From a virus, in IMG/VR virus record IMGVR_UViG_3300034954_001540, positions 16,865 to 80,864 of that record: a stretch of DNA of 64,000 nt, one strand, 5' to 3'. The first letter of the stretch is position 1; each line of letters begins with the position of its first letter. Under the pieces are notes generated by a model. That model worked only from the letters and a program-made list of their open reading frames with translations. It did no database searches and was not told the DNA's origin. The position numbers were made by a program, and so were the translations under genes. This document shows positions 13,459 to 63,717 of this stretch, one piece after another.

Positions 13459-15051
13459 ATGGGAGCAACGGCAAGTTTTAACGATGCCACTGACATTCTT
13501 ACGGTAGCGGCGGACGGTCTCCCCGCTCCTGTAAGTTTTGGCACGTTTCCTAATGAAAACAACCCTAACACGGTAGCAGAGCAGGACTTTGATCATGCTT
13601 TCACTTACCGTGGTGGATCCTTTGGTATTAGTCGTACTTTCGATTCTGCTACTTGGAATCAAGATGGATTCATTAGATCCATCACTATATCTTTGAATGA
13701 CAATTCTTTGTTTGGAGATGAGATTCAGGTAGGTGACAGACTAATGTTTACCTTTAGTGATGGCATTAAAAGAGTATTCCTTTATAAGGGCACTACTTTT
13801 ACATCTATTGAAGATGAATGTTGGTTGGCAACATCGGATAGACTTGACTTGATTATGAGAGACCAAGAGTCTCTTACAACAGGCACTTATGAGTACTATG
13901 ATCAACGGAATGGCAGAGGTGCAACTCCTCTGGGCACTATTGGCATTGCCGCTAACGGCGTTGCTTTGTTTAACCCTTCTGCGGGTAATGGTGGTAACCC
14001 GCCAGTAGGATTCAGTTGGAATGCCCACTACCCACAATCCCCCGTGGACTTTGGTGATGATGATTGTGGTGGGCATCCTGAGCAGAATGGACAGTATCAC
14101 TATCATGACACGCACTTTCTAGATTGTTGGCGTGCTGGATCAGCGATGGCAGGATACAATGATTATTATGGAAGCACACAATATAATGGTGACAACCTGA
14201 GACATCCTGACGGTCATTCTAAGATCGTTGGTATTGCGTTTGATGGATTCCCCATCTATGGACCTTATGCTTACGATTCACCTTGGGATAATCTGAGTGG
14301 TCCTAGAATTATGTCATCTTCCTATGCAACTAAATCAGTTGAGGCAGATGGGAGACCTGACTATGGTAATACTATCCAAAACCCTCCCGCAGGGGCACTG
14401 GTCGAAGACTGGGAGTATGTAGAGGCAACTGGTGACCTTGACTACCATAATGGTAGATTTTGTATCACACCAGAATTTCAGAATGGCACATATGCATATT
14501 TCTTATCTGTAGATCCAGAAGATCTTGATGCTCCTGAGTTTCCATACATGATTGGAAAGTCTACTAGAGAGACTATCAATACAAACTTTACATTACAACC
14601 ACCAACAACTCCTGGCGGTGGTGGCGGTGGTGGAGGGACACCACCTCCTGCTGCAACTCTGGTGTTTACACAACAACCTCAGAATGCAACAACAAATCCT
14701 GGCGAGACAGCAACGTTTACTGTGCAGGCAGAGATTACTCCAGAAAACGGACCTATTGCATATCAGTGGTATCGATCCACAGATGGTGGTTTCGCATTTG
14801 CTGCTATCACAGGCGCGACCACAAACTCTTACACTCTCAGCACCCTAGGATACATGACGGGATACAGATTCCGTTGCCGTATCATTGGACCTTTGGGAGT
14901 CCCAACCCAAGCGGAAAACTCACCTCTTGACTCCAATGCAGCAGTATTAACTGTCACTGGATCTGGTGGTGGTAGCGGATCTACCGCTAATAGATTCGAC
15001 AGCACGCAGAGCACACTGGACTCTACGGCGCAAACCTTCGATGGCACCTAA
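13459..15051 (+). CDS. YHYH-domain virion protein with C-terminal Ig-like domain
   Basis: GIAANGVALFNP, GGHPEQNGQYHYH, AFDGFPIYGP and DLDYHNGRF...YAYF motifs; Ig-like FTQQPQN...FTV...YQWY; C-terminal FDST-type repeat. Confidence 0.85.
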   Translation: MGATASFNDATDILTVAADGLPAPVSFGTFPNENNPNTVAEQDFDHAFTYRGGSFGISRTFDSATWNQDGFIRSITISLNDNSLFGDEIQVGDRLMFTFSDGIKRVFLYKGTTFTSIEDECWLATSDRLDLIMRDQESLTTGTYEYYDQRNGRGATPLGTIGIAANGVALFNPSAGNGGNPPVGFSWNAHYPQSPVDFGDDDCGGHPEQNGQYHYHDTHFLDCWRAGSAMAGYNDYYGSTQYNGDNLRHPDGHSKIVGIAFDGFPIYGPYAYDSPWDNLSGPRIMSSSYATKSVEADGRPDYGNTIQNPPAGALVEDWEYVEATGDLDYHNGRFCITPEFQNGTYAYFLSVDPEDLDAPEFPYMIGKSTRETINTNFTLQPPTTPGGGGGGGGTPPPAATLVFTQQPQNATTNPGETATFTVQAEITPENGPIAYQWYRSTDGGFAFAAITGATTNSYTLSTLGYMTGYRFRCRIIGPLGVPTQAENSPLDSNAAVLTVTGSGGGSGSTANRFDSTQSTLDSTAQTFDGT

Positions 15052-26000: not shown

Positions 26001-27326
26001 GCATATCCTACTGCTGCTCCTTCTTATCCTAATGATGACAAGGAAGTGTTGGTTTATCACAGAAACCACGGTATGCACCAACGTAGTAACAACGTTGAGG
26101 TTGAGGGCATTATCTCTGAAGTGCCTCCTACCACACTAACAACTACTTTGACTGCTGGCGCTACTTCGATTCAGGTCAACGATGCATCTCAATTCCACAC
26201 CATTATTGGTGGTGCTCCTATCGGTAACCTCAATCAGGGTTATCTGATGATCGATGATGAGATCATTCAATACTCTGCAATCTCTGCTAACGGGCAGGTG
26301 ATCACAGTTGCTACCTCTGGTAGAGGTAATAACGGCACTGCTGATGTTGAGCACGCCTCTGGCGCAGTTGTGAAGTGTTACAACCTTGATGGTATTCCTC
26401 TAACAGAAATCAATAAGGTCCACACTAGCATCTCCTGCCCATGGTTGGATACCTACATGCTGCACATTGATCATGTTGCAACTAATGGTATTCGTGGCGG
26501 CGGCACAGATGTGTATGCTTCTCAGAATGTCCAGTTTGAAACCATCACACCTACTGTGTCTACGATGGTCTTACCTGACACTCAGATTAGTGCTCGCTTG
26601 AATACTACCACTGCTACATCTGTCGGAGACGGATCTACTGTGGTTGATCAAAACTCTTTCATCAACAACGGCACTTATGTGGACATTGTGTTGAATGAGC
26701 AAAACCAGTTTACTGCTCCTCAGATGGTTGCATCTAAGATCAACGAGCAAAACAAACTGGATGGTAACAAGTCTCTTACCATGTCGATCATGCTTGAGAC
26801 TGACAGGACAAACCTTTCTCCTGCTATTGACCTTGACCGTGTGTCACTGATTACAACATCTAACCGCGTGAATATGTGGCCAGGTGGACAATCAACTTAT
26901 GGTCAGCAATCTCAGATTGATAGAGATCAAGATGTTTCTACTCTTGCTATCGGTGATCAAAATGATGCTGTCTATATTACACGTCTCGCCCGCTTGGGTA
27001 GAGAAGCACGCTCACTGAAGATTGACTTCCAAGTCACCCGTCACCCTGCTACCGAGCTTCGTATTTACTACAAGGCATTCAAGGTTGGCGACGCGACCGA
27101 TCCTAATACTATTGGTTGGACACAAATGGGTCTACCCACTTCTAACCAAAACTTGGGTGAAGCATATGACACGACTCCTACAGAAGAGTATCTCTGGAAG
27201 GATTATACATATGAAGCAAGGGGACTTAACTTCAACGCCTTCCAAGTGAAGATCGTGATGAGATCTAAGAATCAGGCTCGAGTACCACTTATAGCTGACT
27301 TAAGGTCTATTGCTCTTGCAACCTAA
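20019..27326 (+). CDS. Large VrlC-like virion structural protein
   Basis: N-terminal MPQNTNLN..PYFDDFD..KNFYRVLFRPG..IQARELT.LQS; WYDPLAQSF and LFKSQN.STW motifs typical of cyanomyovirus VrlC-like proteins. Confidence 0.85.
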   Translation: MPQNTNLNIAPYFDDFDKDKNFYRVLFRPGYPIQARELTTLQSILQNQIESIGQHFFKEGAMVIPGQVGYDLNVQAIILQQSFLGVDVETYRTQLHGQIVEGITTGVKAKVLYSISAAESERGYVTLYVKYIESGDTVSDTTIKGFQPNEQLLAENEITFGTTLIEIGSPFAQLLPVDSTAVASAAYINNGVYFIRGHFVDVQSANLILEQYSNNPSYRIGLEVSESIVTPEDDPSLNDNAAGTSNYSAPGGHRFKIKTSLVKKAINDSTDKNFVELLRINNSKVEQFVDSTAYSELEKSLARRTYEESGDYVIDTFSIKARECLDDGFNNGVYTPTQTTQQNNTPTDDLLTYEISPGRAYVKGYRTEFLTPQYVDAAKPRDFACVENGIIHFRLGNFVKVYDQYGWPNLTGEGVSDAYQVIELYDDWNTGVSNSVVGNQIGRARVVQIQIDQVNQYDMWFFDPQMFTAINFAAGNNSVSIGDVLRGRTSGARGFVADNGSGTHCKLEQVSGVFLNNEVIERDGRVIGTLEAAHTYNLSDVRRCLGRNSSNVVTFAANWLLNDNASIESSTVTLSGSGTLATGFRTKFAQDLRPGDVVTTTASGLNGSNTVRIKRVDPTLIATNTGNIATGGTPIFDYLNQTAIVDASLKKGTGNADGEYAEMVRMRPFIFQKDYQNGELSIDTPRTSMKSISDESFFVYRTFANKTVVSGGVTVSLPESEQFASLDNENYVLTIVAESGSSYSVGDNLDIDNLNDLGSLTVTFGADAQSITISGLTNVNTVKLTALISKNIVTRKIKTAAKMRALKVTRTRINNDQTKYGLAYGNLYGTRIEDEEISFALNDVYKIHAVYESEDDNDAESPYMVLSESTFFDNGSVVVGKTSGARGRVIQFVNATLRLYFVALNEIPFIPGETIDGVDDDGNPLQAIVDDSEGSVSKGSKVITTQFELESGQKAHFYDVCKLTRLPGFSPPIRKMLVVFDYFLHESSGDYFSSQSYTGILYKEIPKYKLDGSINYLRDQIDFRPGIGELASGSGTITAPFFVNCASLDFGSRQFDTSGGVGGSTIFDIPKVNTEFRCDYCFYLPRADKLYLTHDNQLKIVKGVSSEDLPHPDKIDNAMLLATIEMRPYVYDVERDVLIYPEIIRRYTMKDIGDLETRLSHVEYYTSLSLLEVQADNTKTYDDNGFDRLKNGYVVDDFTDHTVGDVLNIDYKCSMDFKEGHLRPSHYTTNVPLQINMAASSNVVKTAGNMVMLPYEDLAVITQPYASRTENVNPFNVFTFIGRIDLTPASDDWIDIERLPARVENVEGDFSAVARDLQIDQNGFAPIQWGGWQTNWTGESLQSTSRFSNRSGSFSAGGRRLGRLGHGQGRQPLFLHERRTYRVVNNQARQGVRTRVTPKIDRKSLGDSILSQTAIPWIRSRNIGFNIDRLKPRTRMYFFFDGVNVTGYVTPKVIELTKSSTSDPNSNETPFVVGETVVGQTSGARLKVAAANDGYKTDPYGVGDGALAESYASQTSFLNIDITAMAETVNPNFYGNVNVGEVLLGLTSGARAVVRDRRLLSDNIGNLQGTLFIPSPKNDSNPRWATGTRTVRVTTSDVNDRTPGNVDSSADATYSASGTLQTVRENILAVRNAEIVRDTVNDERTVITTRTEQRQIGWYDPLAQSFIVDEEGGSYLTGVDVFFRTKDANIPISIQIRTMENGYPTKDILPFSDTTIDPDTVELSENASIPTRFTFRSPVYIKSNIEYCFVLLSDSNEYNVWISRMGDIDVSGTRTISEQPYAGVLFKSQNASTWTADQYEDLKFTMYRAEFTQNLGTALFNNAELGKGNGGIHRLIENPIQTLKPKQTLTLPVGGNYTFTVGARIVQTPSGAEGTITEFDAVSDPETITITDIEGIWSSGFLDANNNPFQGIASSQSVATIVLSAIFNGTFEIGDVVSGSTSSATGVVTAYDVGTQTLTLNYITRAFDVSDTLSEPGGTSATITSINYSGDSYDAYPTAAPSYPNDDKEVLVYHRNHGMHQRSNNVEVEGIISEVPPTTLTTTLTAGATSIQVNDASQFHTIIGGAPIGNLNQGYLMIDDEIIQYSAISANGQVITVATSGRGNNGTADVEHASGAVVKCYNLDGIPLTEINKVHTSISCPWLDTYMLHIDHVATNGIRGGGTDVYASQNVQFETITPTVSTMVLPDTQISARLNTTTATSVGDGSTVVDQNSFINNGTYVDIVLNEQNQFTAPQMVASKINEQNKLDGNKSLTMSIMLETDRTNLSPAIDLDRVSLITTSNRVNMWPGGQSTYGQQSQIDRDQDVSTLAIGDQNDAVYITRLARLGREARSLKIDFQVTRHPATELRIYYKAFKVGDATDPNTIGWTQMGLPTSNQNLGEAYDTTPTEEYLWKDYTYEARGLNFNAFQVKIVMRSKNQARVPLIADLRSIALAT

Positions 27327-27365
27327 CACGGTTGATTATAATAATTATTCTTTGATATGTCAAGC
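27319..27365 (-). promoter_or_regulatory. Minus-strand consensus sigma70 promoter (TTGACA-N17-TATAAT) with a CAACC-N6-GGTTG inverted repeat at the start site
   Basis: + strand TGTCAA at 27358-27363 and ATTATA at 27335-27340, 17 nt apart; inverted repeat at 27319-27334; similar element at 62848-62895. Confidence 0.7.
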
Positions 27366-27626
27366 GAAGATTACATCAAACCCTTCAAAGAAGACCTAAT
27401 CCCTGTCGAGGGCAGGGAAGGTTGGTTTCGAGATCCTGACAGTAATGCAATCGTAAATTGCAATCAGTCGGAGTATGACAATTATATGGCAGCATATAAG
27501 CGTCGCGAAGCTAAAGAAAAGAAGATGACCACTTTACAAGATGAGGTATCTGAGTTAAAATCAGATATAGGTGAAATCAAAAACTTACTTAAATCATTAC
27601 TACACGGAGACAACAATGCCAGCTGA
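27357..27626 (+). CDS. Small conserved T4-like hypothetical protein (C-terminal coiled coil)
   Basis: VEG...RDP.SNAIVN motif plus coiled-coil tail, commonly found next to VrlC-like genes. Confidence 0.75.
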   Translation: MSSEDYIKPFKEDLIPVEGREGWFRDPDSNAIVNCNQSEYDNYMAAYKRREAKEKKMTTLQDEVSELKSDIGEIKNLLKSLLHGDNNAS

Positions 27627-59788: not shown

Positions 59789-59961
59789 TAGGTGTAATAC
59801 TTCTATTTCTATTCTCCATTTCTATGTTTGTGCAGGGTTACCTGATCTTACATGGGAAGGGAGGATATTCTAATGTACATAAAGATAAGTGGACTGCTAT
59901 AAATACCAGAAGAAGACTAGAGAAACTCCTTAAGGACAAGACACATGGCGACATGGAATAA
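59764..59961 (+). CDS. Small membrane protein
   Basis: N-terminal TM helix, basic tail. Confidence 0.55.
   Translation: MATNHIEVIGVILLFLFSISMFVQGYLILHGKGGYSNVHKDKWTAINTRRRLEKLLKDKTHGDME
59898..59905 (+). promoter_or_regulatory. T4 late promoter (TATAAATA)
   Basis: Perfect consensus upstream of g3. Confidence 0.7.
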
Positions 59962-60499
59962 GCAAATTGAAAACAGGAATTTCCTGTCACCTATTGGGTT
60001 TAGGTTTACGCTTGCCAAGTATCCTAAGGTTGCATACTTCGCTCAGTCTGCCAATATCCCACAGATTACACTGGGTATCCAGCAGCAACCCACACCATTC
60101 AGAGCACTGCCTTTGGAAGGTTTCATGACGTATGAGCCCCTCACCCTACAATTCCTAGTAGATGAGGACATGACCAACTATATGATCATGCATAACTGGA
60201 TCCGCGCACTCGGCACACCTGATGACACTGTAGAGAGACGTGACTTCAGGAGTCGCATGGTTGCACTGTTTGGTAACGATGATCTATATGCTGACGGCAC
60301 ACTGTCTGTGCTCAATAGTAATTTCAAAATGAATTTCAACGTCCAGTTTGAGGACCTGATTCCTACTGGGTTGAATGCACTAGAGTTTAATGCTACAATA
60401 GATGGCACAGAGTATGCCATGGCACAGGTAACATTCAATTACCTACGCTATGAGATACAGGATACCGTCAATTACTCGCGTGATAAGCGACTTACTTAA
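59945..60499 (+). CDS. g3: Tail completion/tube terminator protein gp3
   Basis: NFLSP.GF.F, F.VDEDM.NY..I.NW and A.VTF.Y motifs; position before uvsY. Confidence 0.85.
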   Translation: MATWNKQIENRNFLSPIGFRFTLAKYPKVAYFAQSANIPQITLGIQQQPTPFRALPLEGFMTYEPLTLQFLVDEDMTNYMIMHNWIRALGTPDDTVERRDFRSRMVALFGNDDLYADGTLSVLNSNFKMNFNVQFEDLIPTGLNALEFNATIDGTEYAMAQVTFNYLRYEIQDTVNYSRDKRLT

Positions 60500-60942
60500 T
60501 GAATCTAGAAAAAATTGAGGAGATGTGGAAGAAGGACGCTGAAGCATTCTTTGACCACCGAGAGTTGCCTGAGCTGCTCGCTAACGACAGTATGGAAACT
60601 CCTCGACTCCATGCAAAATACCTGCAGTTTTATAATCAATTCAAACTGATGCTATCAGAAGCAGAGGTGAAGCGCAAGGTGATGCTTCGCGAGAAGTTTG
60701 AATACTATTCTGGCAAGGCATCTGCCTCTGTATACAAAGAGAAACCCTTTGCACTCAAGGTGCTCAAGGGAGATCTCCCTATGTACATTGACAGTGACCC
60801 AGATCTGACCAGAGCACAACAGAAAATCGACTACCTAGAAACTTGTATAAATTCTATTGATAGGATTCTAAAACAGATCGACAGTCGTGGATTTGCCATC
60901 AAGAATACTATCGAGATTGTGAAGTATTATGGTATCAGATGA
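60499..60942 (+). CDS. uvsY: Recombination mediator UvsY
   Basis: P.LH.KYL, EYYSGKA and R.F.IKN.I motifs. Confidence 0.9.
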   Translation: MNLEKIEEMWKKDAEAFFDHRELPELLANDSMETPRLHAKYLQFYNQFKLMLSEAEVKRKVMLREKFEYYSGKASASVYKEKPFALKVLKGDLPMYIDSDPDLTRAQQKIDYLETCINSIDRILKQIDSRGFAIKNTIEIVKYYGIR

Positions 60943-62399
60943 TAACTATCGAAAAGAAAAACGAAGTTTTTCTGAAGGTTGAAGGTGAGCAACATATCCA
61001 TAAAGAATTAAGCGAGCACTTCCAGTTTGAAGTGCCTGGCGCTAAATTCATGCCGCAATTTAAGAGGAGAGTATGGGACGGTAAGATCAGATTGTATTCT
61101 CCTGGCACAGGAGAGATCTATGTCGGACTATATGATTACCTAACACAGTATCTTGACCAGAAAGGATACGAGTATACTATCAAAGATAGTCAATACTTTG
61201 GTCTACCCAATGACGAGGAGGAATATGTCTCACCTGAAAGCGTTGCGTCTTTTGTTAGATCTCTGGGACTCCCATTTAAGATTCGAGACTACCAACTCAA
61301 AGCACTTTTCACGGCAATTAAGCAGCGTCGCAAGTTACTACTATCCCCGACGGGATCGGGAAAATCCCTAATCATCTATGGTCTGGTCCGCTGGCATCTC
61401 AAGGCGGATAGAGAGATCCTAATCATTGTACCTACAGTCTCTCTGGTCTCGCAGTTGACGCAAGACTTCAAAGACTATGGTTGGAAGGCAGATGCTTATG
61501 TCCATCAGATCATGGGTGGGCAAGAGAGATATGTAGAAGCGCCTGTTGTTATCTCTACATGGCAGAGCATCTACAAAGAGCCCAAGAAATTCTTTGAAAG
61601 GTTTGATGTAATCATCGGTGACGAAGCACACCTCTACAAGGCAAAGTCACTGACAGGTATTCTTAATAAGTGCCACGACGCAAAGTATAGAGTCGGGCTG
61701 ACAGGCACGTTGGATGGGATGTACAGTCATCAGCTTGTGCTGGAAGGTTTATTTGGACGTTGCGACAAGGTGACGACCACTGTTGACCTGATGAAGAAGG
61801 GTCAACTGACACCTCTGAAGGTGCGTGTGCTTCTGATGCAGCATGGTCATGTGCCATTCGATACTTATCAACAAGAGATGGAGTATATAGTATCACATCC
61901 TACAAGAAATAATTTTATTTGTAACTTAGCAGAAGATCTAGACGGTAATACACTCATCCTATTCAACTATATCGAGAAGCATGGTGACCCTTTATGGGAG
62001 ATGCTAAATAATAAGGTGAGTAAAGATCGAAAGATCTTTTTTATTCATGGCGGTGTCGATGCTGTTGAAAGAGAAGAGGCTCGCAAGATATGTGAGCAGG
62101 AAAAGAATGCGATTATCCTCGCATCCTATGGCACATTCTCTACAGGCATCAACATTCGTAACCTACATAATGTAATCTTTGCAAGTCCATCTAAATCAAG
62201 AGTAAGAAACCTCCAGTCCATTGGACGTGTCTTGCGTAAAGGAGACAATAAAGCCCAAGCAGTGTTGTATGACATTGCCGATGATTGCTCCCGAGGTAGC
62301 AGACACAACTACACTCTCCGTCACCTCATAGAACGATTGAAGATCTATGATGAAGAGAAATTTGATTATGAAGTAACTAAGGTAAACCTACGAAAATGA
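60939..62399 (+). CDS. uvsW: RNA-DNA/DNA helicase UvsW
   Basis: WDGKIRL, SPTGSGKS, DEAH and QSIGRVLR SF2 motifs. Confidence 0.95.
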   Translation: MITIEKKNEVFLKVEGEQHIHKELSEHFQFEVPGAKFMPQFKRRVWDGKIRLYSPGTGEIYVGLYDYLTQYLDQKGYEYTIKDSQYFGLPNDEEEYVSPESVASFVRSLGLPFKIRDYQLKALFTAIKQRRKLLLSPTGSGKSLIIYGLVRWHLKADREILIIVPTVSLVSQLTQDFKDYGWKADAYVHQIMGGQERYVEAPVVISTWQSIYKEPKKFFERFDVIIGDEAHLYKAKSLTGILNKCHDAKYRVGLTGTLDGMYSHQLVLEGLFGRCDKVTTTVDLMKKGQLTPLKVRVLLMQHGHVPFDTYQQEMEYIVSHPTRNNFICNLAEDLDGNTLILFNYIEKHGDPLWEMLNNKVSKDRKIFFIHGGVDAVEREEARKICEQEKNAIILASYGTFSTGINIRNLHNVIFASPSKSRVRNLQSIGRVLRKGDNKAQAVLYDIADDCSRGSRHNYTLRHLIERLKIYDEEKFDYEVTKVNLRK

Positions 62400-62839
62400 T
62401 TAACTACATCCGTCACGACAACGAATTCTACGGCATTGTTAAGTTGGTGTCTGGTGAAGAAGTAATGGGATCAATGATCGCCACGAATGAAGACAACTGC
62501 ACAATGGTATATGTGTCTGACCCTCTCACTCCTACCCTAACTCCTATCGAAAAAGATGGTGAGATGGGTATTGCTGCGGGATTTACTAAATGGATGATGT
62601 GGTCAGATGAAGAGTTTTATATAATCCAAGAACCTGACATCGTAACGATTGCTCCAATGTCTACAGAAGCAATCATGATGTATAAGATGTGGTGGAGAAA
62701 AGCAGGTAACGGTGGGGAGGATAAGGATCCTGGTGTGCCCATGAATGAAAACATGGGTCTTGTGGGAAAGGTGTCAGAGATGAGAAAGAAACTAGAGGCT
62801 CAGTGGAAGAAACCACCTAAAGAAAAAGACTCTAAGTAG
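62396..62839 (+). CDS. Conserved hypothetical protein (possible Sm-like fold)
   Basis: KLVSGEE motif; usual position between uvsW and g55. Confidence 0.75.
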   Translation: MINYIRHDNEFYGIVKLVSGEEVMGSMIATNEDNCTMVYVSDPLTPTLTPIEKDGEMGIAAGFTKWMMWSDEEFYIIQEPDIVTIAPMSTEAIMMYKMWWRKAGNGGEDKDPGVPMNENMGLVGKVSEMRKKLEAQWKKPPKEKDSK

Positions 62840-62847
62840 TTCCTTTC

Positions 62848-62895
62848 CAACCCTTACATGGTTGAGTATAATTATTATTCTTAACTGTGTCAAGC
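62848..62895 (-). promoter_or_regulatory. Minus-strand sigma70 promoter (TTGACA-N17-TATACT) with a CAACC-N7-GGTTG inverted repeat
   Basis: + strand TGTCAA at 62888-62893 and AGTATA at 62865-62870; similar to 27319-27365. Confidence 0.65.
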
Positions 62896-62924
62896 TTGAC
62901 CTTTCAAGCATTATCTTTTATAAT
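62896..62924 (+). promoter_or_regulatory. sigma70 promoter for g55 (TTGACC-N17-TATAAT)
   Basis: -35 at 62896-62901, -10 at 62919-62924. Confidence 0.8.
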
Positions 62925-62947
62925 GATTAAGTGAGAAAAAATTAAAT

Positions 62948-63424
62948 ATGACTGTAATGCCTCCTAAGAAAAAACAACATTACGTTGATAACAAAAAGTT
63001 TCTTAGCGAGATCGTTAAGTATCGAGAAGCAGTTGAGACTGCCAAGCTACAAGATAGACCTAAACCTAGGATCACTCACTACCTAGGGGATTGCTTCTTG
63101 AAGATTGCCACCCACCTGTCATATAGACCTAACTTTATTAACTACATGTATAAGGAGGACATGATCTCCGATGGTGTAGAGAATTGTGTCCAATACATCG
63201 ACAACTTCGATCCTGCCAAGAGTAAAAACCCATTTGCATATTTCACACAGATCGTGTATTATGCGTTTCTGCGACGAATCGCCAAAGAAAAGCGTCAGAT
63301 GGACATCCGCGACAAACTCATCGAGAAGAATGGTTACGATCAAGTCTTCCACTCAGATGAGAATGATAACCATGCGGACATGAATTCTATCAAGAGTCGT
63401 ATCGAAACCAATATGCGTAACTAA
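62948..63424 (+). CDS. g55: Late-transcription sigma factor gp55
   Basis: HYVDNK.F, NF.NY...EDMI.DG.ENC and NPFAYFTQI...AF.RRI.KEK motifs. Confidence 0.95.
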   Translation: MTVMPPKKKQHYVDNKKFLSEIVKYREAVETAKLQDRPKPRITHYLGDCFLKIATHLSYRPNFINYMYKEDMISDGVENCVQYIDNFDPAKSKNPFAYFTQIVYYAFLRRIAKEKRQMDIRDKLIEKNGYDQVFHSDENDNHADMNSIKSRIETNMRN

Positions 63425-63717
63425 TGACCACTGAGACGAAAAGAGCAACCCTTGCAACGTCGCTGGGATCTAATCCCACGATTGAGAAGCACATCCCCGA
63501 GGATGTCGAATGGATTGATGATGCCTTCTACATCAAGAAGACCCGCTTTGGTCTCTACACCAGTGTAGTTAGGGATCCCCTTGGTGCCAACTTCCTTACA
63601 GGGGGCACTTATGAAGGTGTCCTTAAGATGACGAGATGGCATCTCAAGTGCTTGCAAGAAGGCACCATGCACCTGTATACTAGACACGTTAACACTACCA
63701 AAGGAGTTAAACTGTAA
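63424..63717 (+). CDS. Hypothetical protein
   Basis: TAATG coupling with g55; WIDD.FY...TRFG motif. Confidence 0.7.
   Translation: MTTETKRATLATSLGSNPTIEKHIPEDVEWIDDAFYIKKTRFGLYTSVVRDPLGANFLTGGTYEGVLKMTRWHLKCLQEGTMHLYTRHVNTTKGVKL

Follow-up and report, generated by a model that had tools for sequence, protein, structure and literature searches.

The window, as we call the whole 64-kb stretch of DNA that was analyzed, forms the final 64 kb of an 80.9-kb IMG/VR contig and comes from an uncultured cyanomyovirus whose nearest cultured relatives share only ~70-74% identity with it in the region described here. The first-pass annotation had placed a g3-like gene, uvsY, uvsW and the gene for the late sigma factor gp55 in that order, and all four were found as it described. 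We add to this order a 147-aa Sm-like domain gene, which separates uvsW from the promoter element that is the subject of this analysis. The genes around the element are as follows:

59945-60499: g3-like gene
60499-60942: uvsY
60939-62399: uvsW
62396-62839, plus strand: Sm-like domain gene, 147 aa (PF16243, E 1e-23; phrog_471)
62948-63424, plus strand: g55, late sigma factor (phrog_234, E 1e-68; weak match to Sigma70_r2)

To judge from its domain, the product of the Sm-like gene may be an RNA-binding protein; in public records of RefSeq phages the gene is named 'methylamine utilization'. On the 3' side of g55 lies a 97-aa gene (63424-63717, plus strand; DUF7468, PF24272, E 1e-25; phrog_744), which many relatives also keep between g55 and g47.

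Between the Sm-like gene and g55, two predicted promoters diverge from one another, and a second site in the window resembles the backward member of the pair. The features are:

62893..62888, minus strand: -35 hexamer of the antisense promoter, TTGACA
62870..62865, minus strand: -10 hexamer of the antisense promoter, TATACT, at a 17-nt spacer from the -35
62849..62863, minus strand: start-site box of 15 bp, AACCATGTAAGGGTT, forming the central part of the 62848-62864 repeat and extending from about -6 to +9 relative to the predicted antisense start
62849..62893, minus strand: box promoter copy 2 in full, TTGACA-N17-TATACT-C-AACCATGTAAGGGTT, facing the Sm-like gene and uvsW in antisense
62889..62900, no strand assigned: palindrome GTCAAGCTTGAC, two abutting -35 regions
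62896-62901, plus strand: -35 hexamer of the g55 promoter, TTGACC
62919-62924, plus strand: -10 hexamer of the g55 promoter, TATAAT, at a 17-nt spacer from the -35
62896..62924, plus strand: g55 promoter, with a predicted start at ~62931 and a conserved GTGAG ribosome-binding site before the ATG at 62948
27320..27363, minus strand: box promoter copy 1, TTGACA-N17-TATAAT-C-AACCGTGTTAGGTT, antisense to a giant ORF

Re-reading of the sequence confirmed that the two promoters stand back to back, with TTGACA-N17-TATACT on the minus strand (62893..62865), TTGACC-N17-TATAAT on the plus strand (62896..62924) and 2 bp between them. The palindrome that had been described is also present, GTCAAGCTTGAC at 62889-62900, and is made by the two -35 hexamers with GC between them. 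The repeat CAACC-CTTACAT-GGTTG had been said to cover the antisense +1, and its span, 62848-62864, does contain the predicted minus-strand start (62857-62859). Each promoter agrees with the consensus at 11/12 positions, and in both the hexamers lie 16-18 bp apart, as in promoters of the host primary sigma factor (sigma-70/SigA).

Sites with at least 11/12 matches number five in the whole 64-kb window, against a shuffle mean of 1.3. On the minus strand only two sites in the 64 kb reach this level, and they are the two box copies (62893..62865 and 27363..27335). The composite pattern of promoter plus box occurs twice in the window and had no matches in 100 shuffles. Because it is conserved across hundreds of related contigs, the layout is not a product of chance. 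Several other candidates in the sequence were rejected. A plus-strand reading, TTTCCA-N17-TATAAT (62844-62872), is not conserved: GTGTAC stands in its place in the relatives that we call class B, and the spacing in copy 1 is wrong. A near-match at 13560-13576 has three mismatches and lies in coding DNA, and we regard it as chance. A terminator-like hairpin, GCTTGACCTTTCAAGC (62894-62909, plus strand; 6-bp stem, GCTTGA-CCTT-TCAAGC), occurs in the closest relatives only and is probably not functional; the -35 box of the g55 promoter sits in its stem and loop.

To assess conservation upstream of g55, we used 80 IMG/VR loci fetched via gp55, which gave 56 distinct upstream regions. A plus-strand TTGACn-N16-18-TAnnnT is present in 56/56 of them. 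A minus-strand TTGACA-N16-18-TAnnnT is found in 32/56, with AAC-N8-10-GTT directly after it in 32/32, and all 32 of these backward promoters have the 15-bp box (AACnnTGTnnnGGTT) 0-1 nt after the -10. Conservation upstream of g55 in other cyanomyoviruses, which had been named as a check, therefore holds in full for the plus-strand promoter and in part for the backward one, which is absent from 24/56 regions. In those 24 the Sm-like ORF extends to the g55 promoter, and P-TIM40 is of the same kind. Given these absences, the backward promoter is not a universal part of the early-to-late switch, and in some lineages it is, on this comparison, dispensable. Among named phages, a backward copy adjoins g55 in Syn9, S-H35, P-SSM2 and P-SSM4, and one with a 16-nt variant of the box does so in S-PM2, S-RSM4 and S-SZBM1; the carriers of the g55-side backward copy span several Kyanoviridae genera. 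P-HM2 has a backward TTGACA-N17-TACACT without a recognizable box.

The hexamers are kept among relatives while the spacer drifts, the pattern expected of a promoter. The -10 of the antisense promoter varies (TACAAT, TATACT, TATAAT, TAGAAT, TACACT) with T1, A2 and T6 kept throughout. In class B relatives, AGTGTA replaces AGTATA, a substitution that keeps the minus-strand TACACT and destroys the alternative plus-strand TATAAT, from which it follows that selection acts on the minus-strand reading. In 166 distinct instances, conservation extends from the C that precedes the -35 as far as ~+12, and most spacer columns together with everything beyond ~+12 carry 0-0.5 bit. At positions that had been left unconstrained, information is high: 1.8 bits at position 4 of the -10, and 1.6-1.9 bits at the inner box positions TGT. 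Since information is low downstream of ~+12, the thing conserved is the promoter with its start-site box and not the RNA predicted from it.

The backward promoter is one member of a wider family. A pattern representing it, TTGACA-N17-TAnnnT-(0-1)-AAC[AC]-N6-7-GGTT, matched >118 loci in IMG/VR. Among the 80 of these that were listed, 43 are flanked by g55 (divergent) on one side and by the Sm-like gene and uvsW (antisense) on the other, at least six related contigs carry the element at the junction of the giant ORF and an 89-aa ORF, and the remaining loci lie elsewhere. So as to avoid circularity, we also scanned with the commonest 15-mer of the box alone, which gave 67 distinct instances. A perfect TTGACA at 17 nt (at 18 in two cases) and a TAnnnT 0-1 nt before the box accompany 54/67; the other 13/67 are chance matches in unrelated coding DNA. 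In cyanophages the box is never found without a promoter and always lies 0-1 nt after the -10. Complete or near-complete cyanomyovirus genomes have 0-3 copies of promoter plus box, many of them 1-3.

No promoter-plus-box was found in 185,579 prokaryote genomes, except on two contigs of metagenome-assembled genomes that are fragments of cyanophages. One contig, NHGE01000026.1 ('Euryarchaeota archaeon TMED129'), encodes uvsW, the Sm-like gene and a gp55 94% identical to that of the window; the other, CAZJXE010000348.1 ('Weeksellaceae'), encodes the same three genes with a gp55 62% identical to the window's. By this gene content, both are cyanomyovirus fragments binned into unrelated genomes. In this form, then, promoter plus box is by its distribution a phage motif and not a host one. 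A host box accompanied by no consensus promoter could exist, as the scan pattern covered promoter plus box.

Elsewhere in cyanophage genomes the box promoter stands in the sense orientation. Copies directly precede a CP12 homologue (PF02672) at five loci and a CpeT/CpcT homologue at six, the latter assignment being made on a 70-aa fragment with PF06206 just under the cut-off. Sense copies also precede a family of 65-70 aa proteins like gp88 of Syn9 and a family of ~195 aa; Syn9 itself has a sense-oriented box promoter at NC_008296.2:52741-52797. The first-pass annotation had spoken of an antisense element, and as the name of a dedicated element this has to be given up: the same box promoter precedes the sense genes cp12 and cpeT, and so it represents a promoter class. 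As far as genomic context goes, the box promoter is a portable promoter class for a few accessory genes, and the cp12, cpeT, gp88-like and ~195-aa contexts suggest a small class of co-regulated promoters. The g55-side copy is the one box promoter without a gene behind it.

We then considered the geometry of the divergent pairs in a set of 192 distinct box promoters, 133 of which have an opposite-strand host-type promoter within 80 bp. In 95/133 pairs, the -35 hexamers are no more than 2 bp apart, coincident or interdigitated. The gaps between the -35 hexamers are distributed as follows:

Gap -16: 36/133, interdigitated as TTGACA-N4-TGTCAA; Syn9, P-SSM4
Gap -7: 26/133, the same TTGACAA read both ways; S-H35
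Gap +2: 31/133, the window's palindrome GTCAAGCTTGAC
Gap +3 to +8: 24/133
Gap -15 or +1: one pair each
Larger gaps: the remaining 14/133

The palindrome to which a role had been attached is therefore present, but it is one of three lineage-specific layouts and so is not in itself the conserved feature. By layout, the two start sites are ~56, 65 or 74 bp apart, with ~74 bp in the window. Judged across these pairs, what is conserved is tight coupling, with core promoters that touch or overlap. Where the -35 hexamers coincide or interdigitate, two polymerases cannot bind at once. Mutually exclusive occupancy, which had been proposed for the window, thus finds indirect, comparative support in the coincident and interdigitated layouts and in the tight coupling of 95/133 pairs, but the window's own layout does not strictly exclude the binding of both. 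Interference between the two promoters in this +2 layout is likely, not certain.

The backward promoter lies opposite annotated genes, the Sm-like gene and uvsW, and has no ORF of its own, as expected of a cis-antisense promoter; its predicted transcript would meet the Sm-like gene first. The antisense pressure on the g3-uvsY-uvsW block that had been proposed is a hypothesis. Downstream on the minus strand there is no conserved ORF: ORFs of at least 35 aa within 90 nt occur only in near relatives and mirror the Sm-like gene, and a small minus-strand protein was rejected on these grounds. A scan of the same strand downstream found no conserved antisense terminator or RNA feature. One candidate that recurs in relatives, a minus-strand hairpin with a T run in uvsW (62096-62126, ~720 nt downstream), turned out to be a product of the codons for A-I-I-x-A-S; its synonymous sites form Watson-Crick pairs in 48/105 cases versus ~36 expected, and the covariation is not convincing. 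By position, 7-8 nt after the -10, the predicted minus-strand start is the G of TGT. With a start at TGT, half of the box is untranscribed, and the repeat cannot fold in the antisense RNA.

Part of the locus is contained in RNA libraries, in ten runs from several studies, of which four were compared as unstranded contigs. Contig starts at 62931 and 62937, from two studies, fall near the predicted g55 start, and one contig ends at 62873, all three positions being possible assembly breaks where strains vary. The intergenic region is spanned in full by two contigs, perhaps through read-through or because DNA was carried over. The starts at 62931 and 62937 are a weak hint in support of the g55 promoter and say nothing on the backward one. 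The literature searched makes no mention of an antisense promoter at g55; outside that search lies the Syn9 study of Doron et al. 2016, which reportedly mapped the transcription start sites of that phage.

We consider it fairly probable, at roughly 60%, that the two sequences are real, divergent host primary-sigma promoters, that the backward one is a member of the box class, and that at g55 it acts in a competing, regulatory or insulating way. The plus-strand promoter would be the conserved promoter of g55, of host primary-sigma (sigma-70/SigA) type. The backward promoter would belong to a class defined by a perfect TTGACA, a 17-nt spacer, TAnnnT and, 0-1 nt further on, the near-palindromic 15-bp box (AACnnTGTnnnGGTT) over the start. 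With no gene to serve, it would give a transcript that is antisense to the 3' end of the Sm-like gene and continues in the direction of uvsW. Wherever a lineage has a g55-side backward promoter, the -35 regions of the predicted pair abut, are shared or interdigitate, and the two promoters most likely compete for RNA polymerase. In this way the backward promoter would control the amount, and possibly the timing, of host polymerase activity at g55 and at the operon upstream. The firing of both promoters, their competition and an effect on g55 timing are points we infer from sequence comparison. The backward copy could also be strong and yet matter little for regulation, as the same class drives cp12 and cpeT. 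On balance, the element looks like a real control element and promoter competition is plausible; its roles as an operator, as a timing switch and in the early-to-late transition are offered as hypotheses.

The box itself can be read in two ways. It is a near-palindrome centered at ~+2 of the antisense promoter, and in 174 distinct instances its positions 5 and 11 covary (T-A in 14/14, G-C in 11/11), which fits an imperfect dyad operator; a promoter-intrinsic start-site region fits this covariation less well. As an operator, the box would let a dimeric phage or host protein switch the 1-3 box promoters of a genome, and with the backward promoter shut, the g55 promoter would be freed, along the lines that the first-pass annotation had proposed. 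So few copies per genome are what a specific regulon would have, and the motif's confinement to phages, with nothing in the 185,579 prokaryote genomes beyond the two misbinned phage contigs, points the same way. However, the perfect palindrome AACCC...GGGTT occurs in only 1/174 instances, and the commonest classes, AACAC...GGGTT and AACCA...GGGTT, keep a mismatch. The constant register next to the -10 and the absence of promoter-free boxes in cyanophages would equally be expected of a promoter-intrinsic sequence, and no candidate binding protein was identified. We regard an operator as rather doubtful, and an operator that joins the g55-side backward promoter and the cp12 and cpeT promoters in an early-to-late regulon as unlikely. 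Comparison with the published consensi of NtcA, HLR1 and the Pho box showed no fit, Rfam gave no matches around five copies of the element, and the MarR-type factor of P-SSP7 comes from a T7-like phage and is irrelevant to the box. A start-stop mini-ORF in the box (ATG-TAA or GTG-TAG) was likewise dismissed, as it is not kept in TGTCAG variants.

The rigid 0-1 nt register, and the fact that the box is never without a promoter, suggest that the box may instead be part of the promoter itself. It would then combine a conserved discriminator with an initial transcribed sequence and act on the stability of the open complex, on promoter escape or on the stability of the 5' end, and the backward copy would be a very strong constitutive host-type promoter; the half of the box that is transcribed, GUAAGGG, resembles a ribosome-binding sequence. 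The whole 45-bp unit recurs before unrelated genes (cp12, cpeT, the gp88-like and ~195-aa families), and in about ten sense copies an ATG follows the predicted start by 12-20 nt, where AAGGG could serve as a ribosome-binding site, but in most sense copies the ATG is 29-70 nt away. Conserved initial transcribed ('downstream') regions are known from strong phage early promoters such as T5 N25, and there, as here, a conserved sequence at ~-6 to +12 is attached to a consensus promoter. The T5 regions, by contrast, are not palindromic and have no covariation described, and the box sits on few promoters of a cyanophage genome. Reading the box as a promoter part leaves unexplained both the palindromic covariation of positions 5 and 11 and why only 1-3 of the many host-type promoters per genome carry it; we hold it to be a possible, tentative explanation. 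Two further explanations concern other parts of the arrangement, and both are very improbable. In one, the backward promoter would prime replication through an R-loop that supplies a leading-strand primer and is later unwound by UvsW. The T4 origins oriF(uvsY) and oriG(34) are promoter-driven, and their transcript need not encode anything; a conserved geneless promoter adjoining uvsW and uvsY resembles them in its position. Yet the predicted transcript is rich in pyrimidines over its first 100 nt (purine fraction 0.40), unlike the purine-rich transcript of a T4 R-loop origin, and the DNA downstream, with an AT content of 0.58 against 0.55 for the window, is coding and has no conserved AT-rich unwinding element. 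Moreover, the same promoter class serves ordinary genes, directly before the start codons of cp12 and cpeT, and the second copy lies inside a late structural block. In the other, the repeat would end the uvsW/Sm-like mRNA on the plus strand, as a terminator or a 3'-end hairpin, and its neighborhood would match a minus-strand promoter only incidentally. The hairpin does lie 9 nt after the stop codon, and the RNA-library contig that ends at 62873 does so 9 nt past the stem, but contig ends in a strain mixture are unreliable. The hairpin is weak (5-bp stem, -4.8 kcal/mol, z -1.3) and lacks a U tract, the consensus scan did not list the site as a terminator, and in the commonest variants of the box the pairing is poorer still. 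Upstream of the sense copies there is no gene to terminate, and a perfect -35 and a -10 at fixed spacing in 54/54 cannot be incidental.

The preferred reading, two divergent promoters that compete, has a parallel in the PR and PRM promoters of phage lambda, which stand back to back with starts ~82 bp apart and whose bound polymerases interfere. In both systems host-sigma promoters diverge from abutting -35s, palindromes lie in the shared region and occupancy is mutually affected, an effect that is predicted here. In lambda, operators bound by the repressors CI and Cro lie between and over the promoters, whereas the cyanophage pair has no known binding protein and its near-palindromic box covers one start site rather than lying between the promoters. 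The spacing of the starts also differs, being ~56 to 74 bp among the cyanophage lineages. A second parallel is found in PAK_P3 and PAK_P4, where early antisense RNAs over structural genes have been proposed as timers (PMC5563952). There too, a lytic phage directs promoters against its own genes, with the proposed effect of damping them at the wrong time. Those RNAs were detected experimentally, whereas the cyanophage antisense RNA is predicted only, and they show neither a coupling to the promoter of a sigma factor gene nor a shared start-site box.

T4-like cyanophages are among the most abundant marine viruses. The genes alt/mod, motA and asiA are absent from cyanomyoviruses, and the published view is that these phages rely on host polymerase in unmodified form, which would act at sigma-70-like promoters, their late promoters being NATAAATA; one antisense RNA, CfrI, is known from S-PM2 (PMC2984593). 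In phages without MotA and AsiA, the backward promoter would offer a concrete, mutable target in the timing of the hand-over from host sigma to gp55-dependent late transcription, and Syn9, S-PM2, P-SSM2 and P-SSM4 are laboratory models that carry the element. Should the backward promoter only compete, or insulate g55 from read-through, it would be a case of ordinary promoter interference. A binding protein for the box, if one exists, would point to a new regulatory circuit. An operator regulon, if true, would provide a missing switch in phages without MotA and AsiA, and would link the freeing of gp55 synthesis to the switching off of genes for the early metabolic take-over.

The other copy in the window, copy 1, occupies a 30-bp gap between the stop of the giant, 2435-aa ORF (27326) and the ATG of the 89-aa ORF (27357), where it faces a late structural gene within the late structural block. 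The description of 62849..62893 as a second copy of this element is correct; the two align over ~50 bp including part of the spacer. Over the compared stretches (27308-27370 and 62836-62900), the window copies share the spacer sequence AAGAATAAT.ATTATA, and the two Syn9 copies do not share theirs. The shared spacer suggests a recent conversion or duplication between the copies in the lineage of the window.

A repeated promoter cassette of this sort recalls the PeSLs (promoter-early stem-loops) of T4-type phages, in which a stable G/C-rich terminator lies beside a promoter, and which are numerous in hyperplastic regions, before accessory genes (PMC2839356, PMC4122927). Both are repeated short cassettes that combine a near-perfect TTGACA-N17-TATAAT with an adjacent inverted repeat and stand before accessory genes, and the shared spacer of the window copies suggests recombination or conversion. 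The repetition of a near-consensus early promoter is also common to both, the window having two copies of the box promoter and other genomes 1-3 each. Two hallmarks of PeSLs are missing, however. The box does not form a stable G/C-rich terminating stem-loop, its stem being weak and overlapping the start instead of preceding the promoter, and rather than many copies flanking ORFans in hyperplastic regions, the best-conserved box copy points backward in the core uvsW-g55 region. Another repeated unit, which looks closer to PeSLs than the box promoter does, was seen in Syn9 (L092:2933-2985, plus strand) and S-H35 (L093, minus strand, 2408), where a G/C-rich hairpin (GGGGGCAGTTAATTGGCCCCC) comes directly after TTGACA-N17-TATACT; the two phages have this unit in common, ~700 bp downstream of the sense box promoter.
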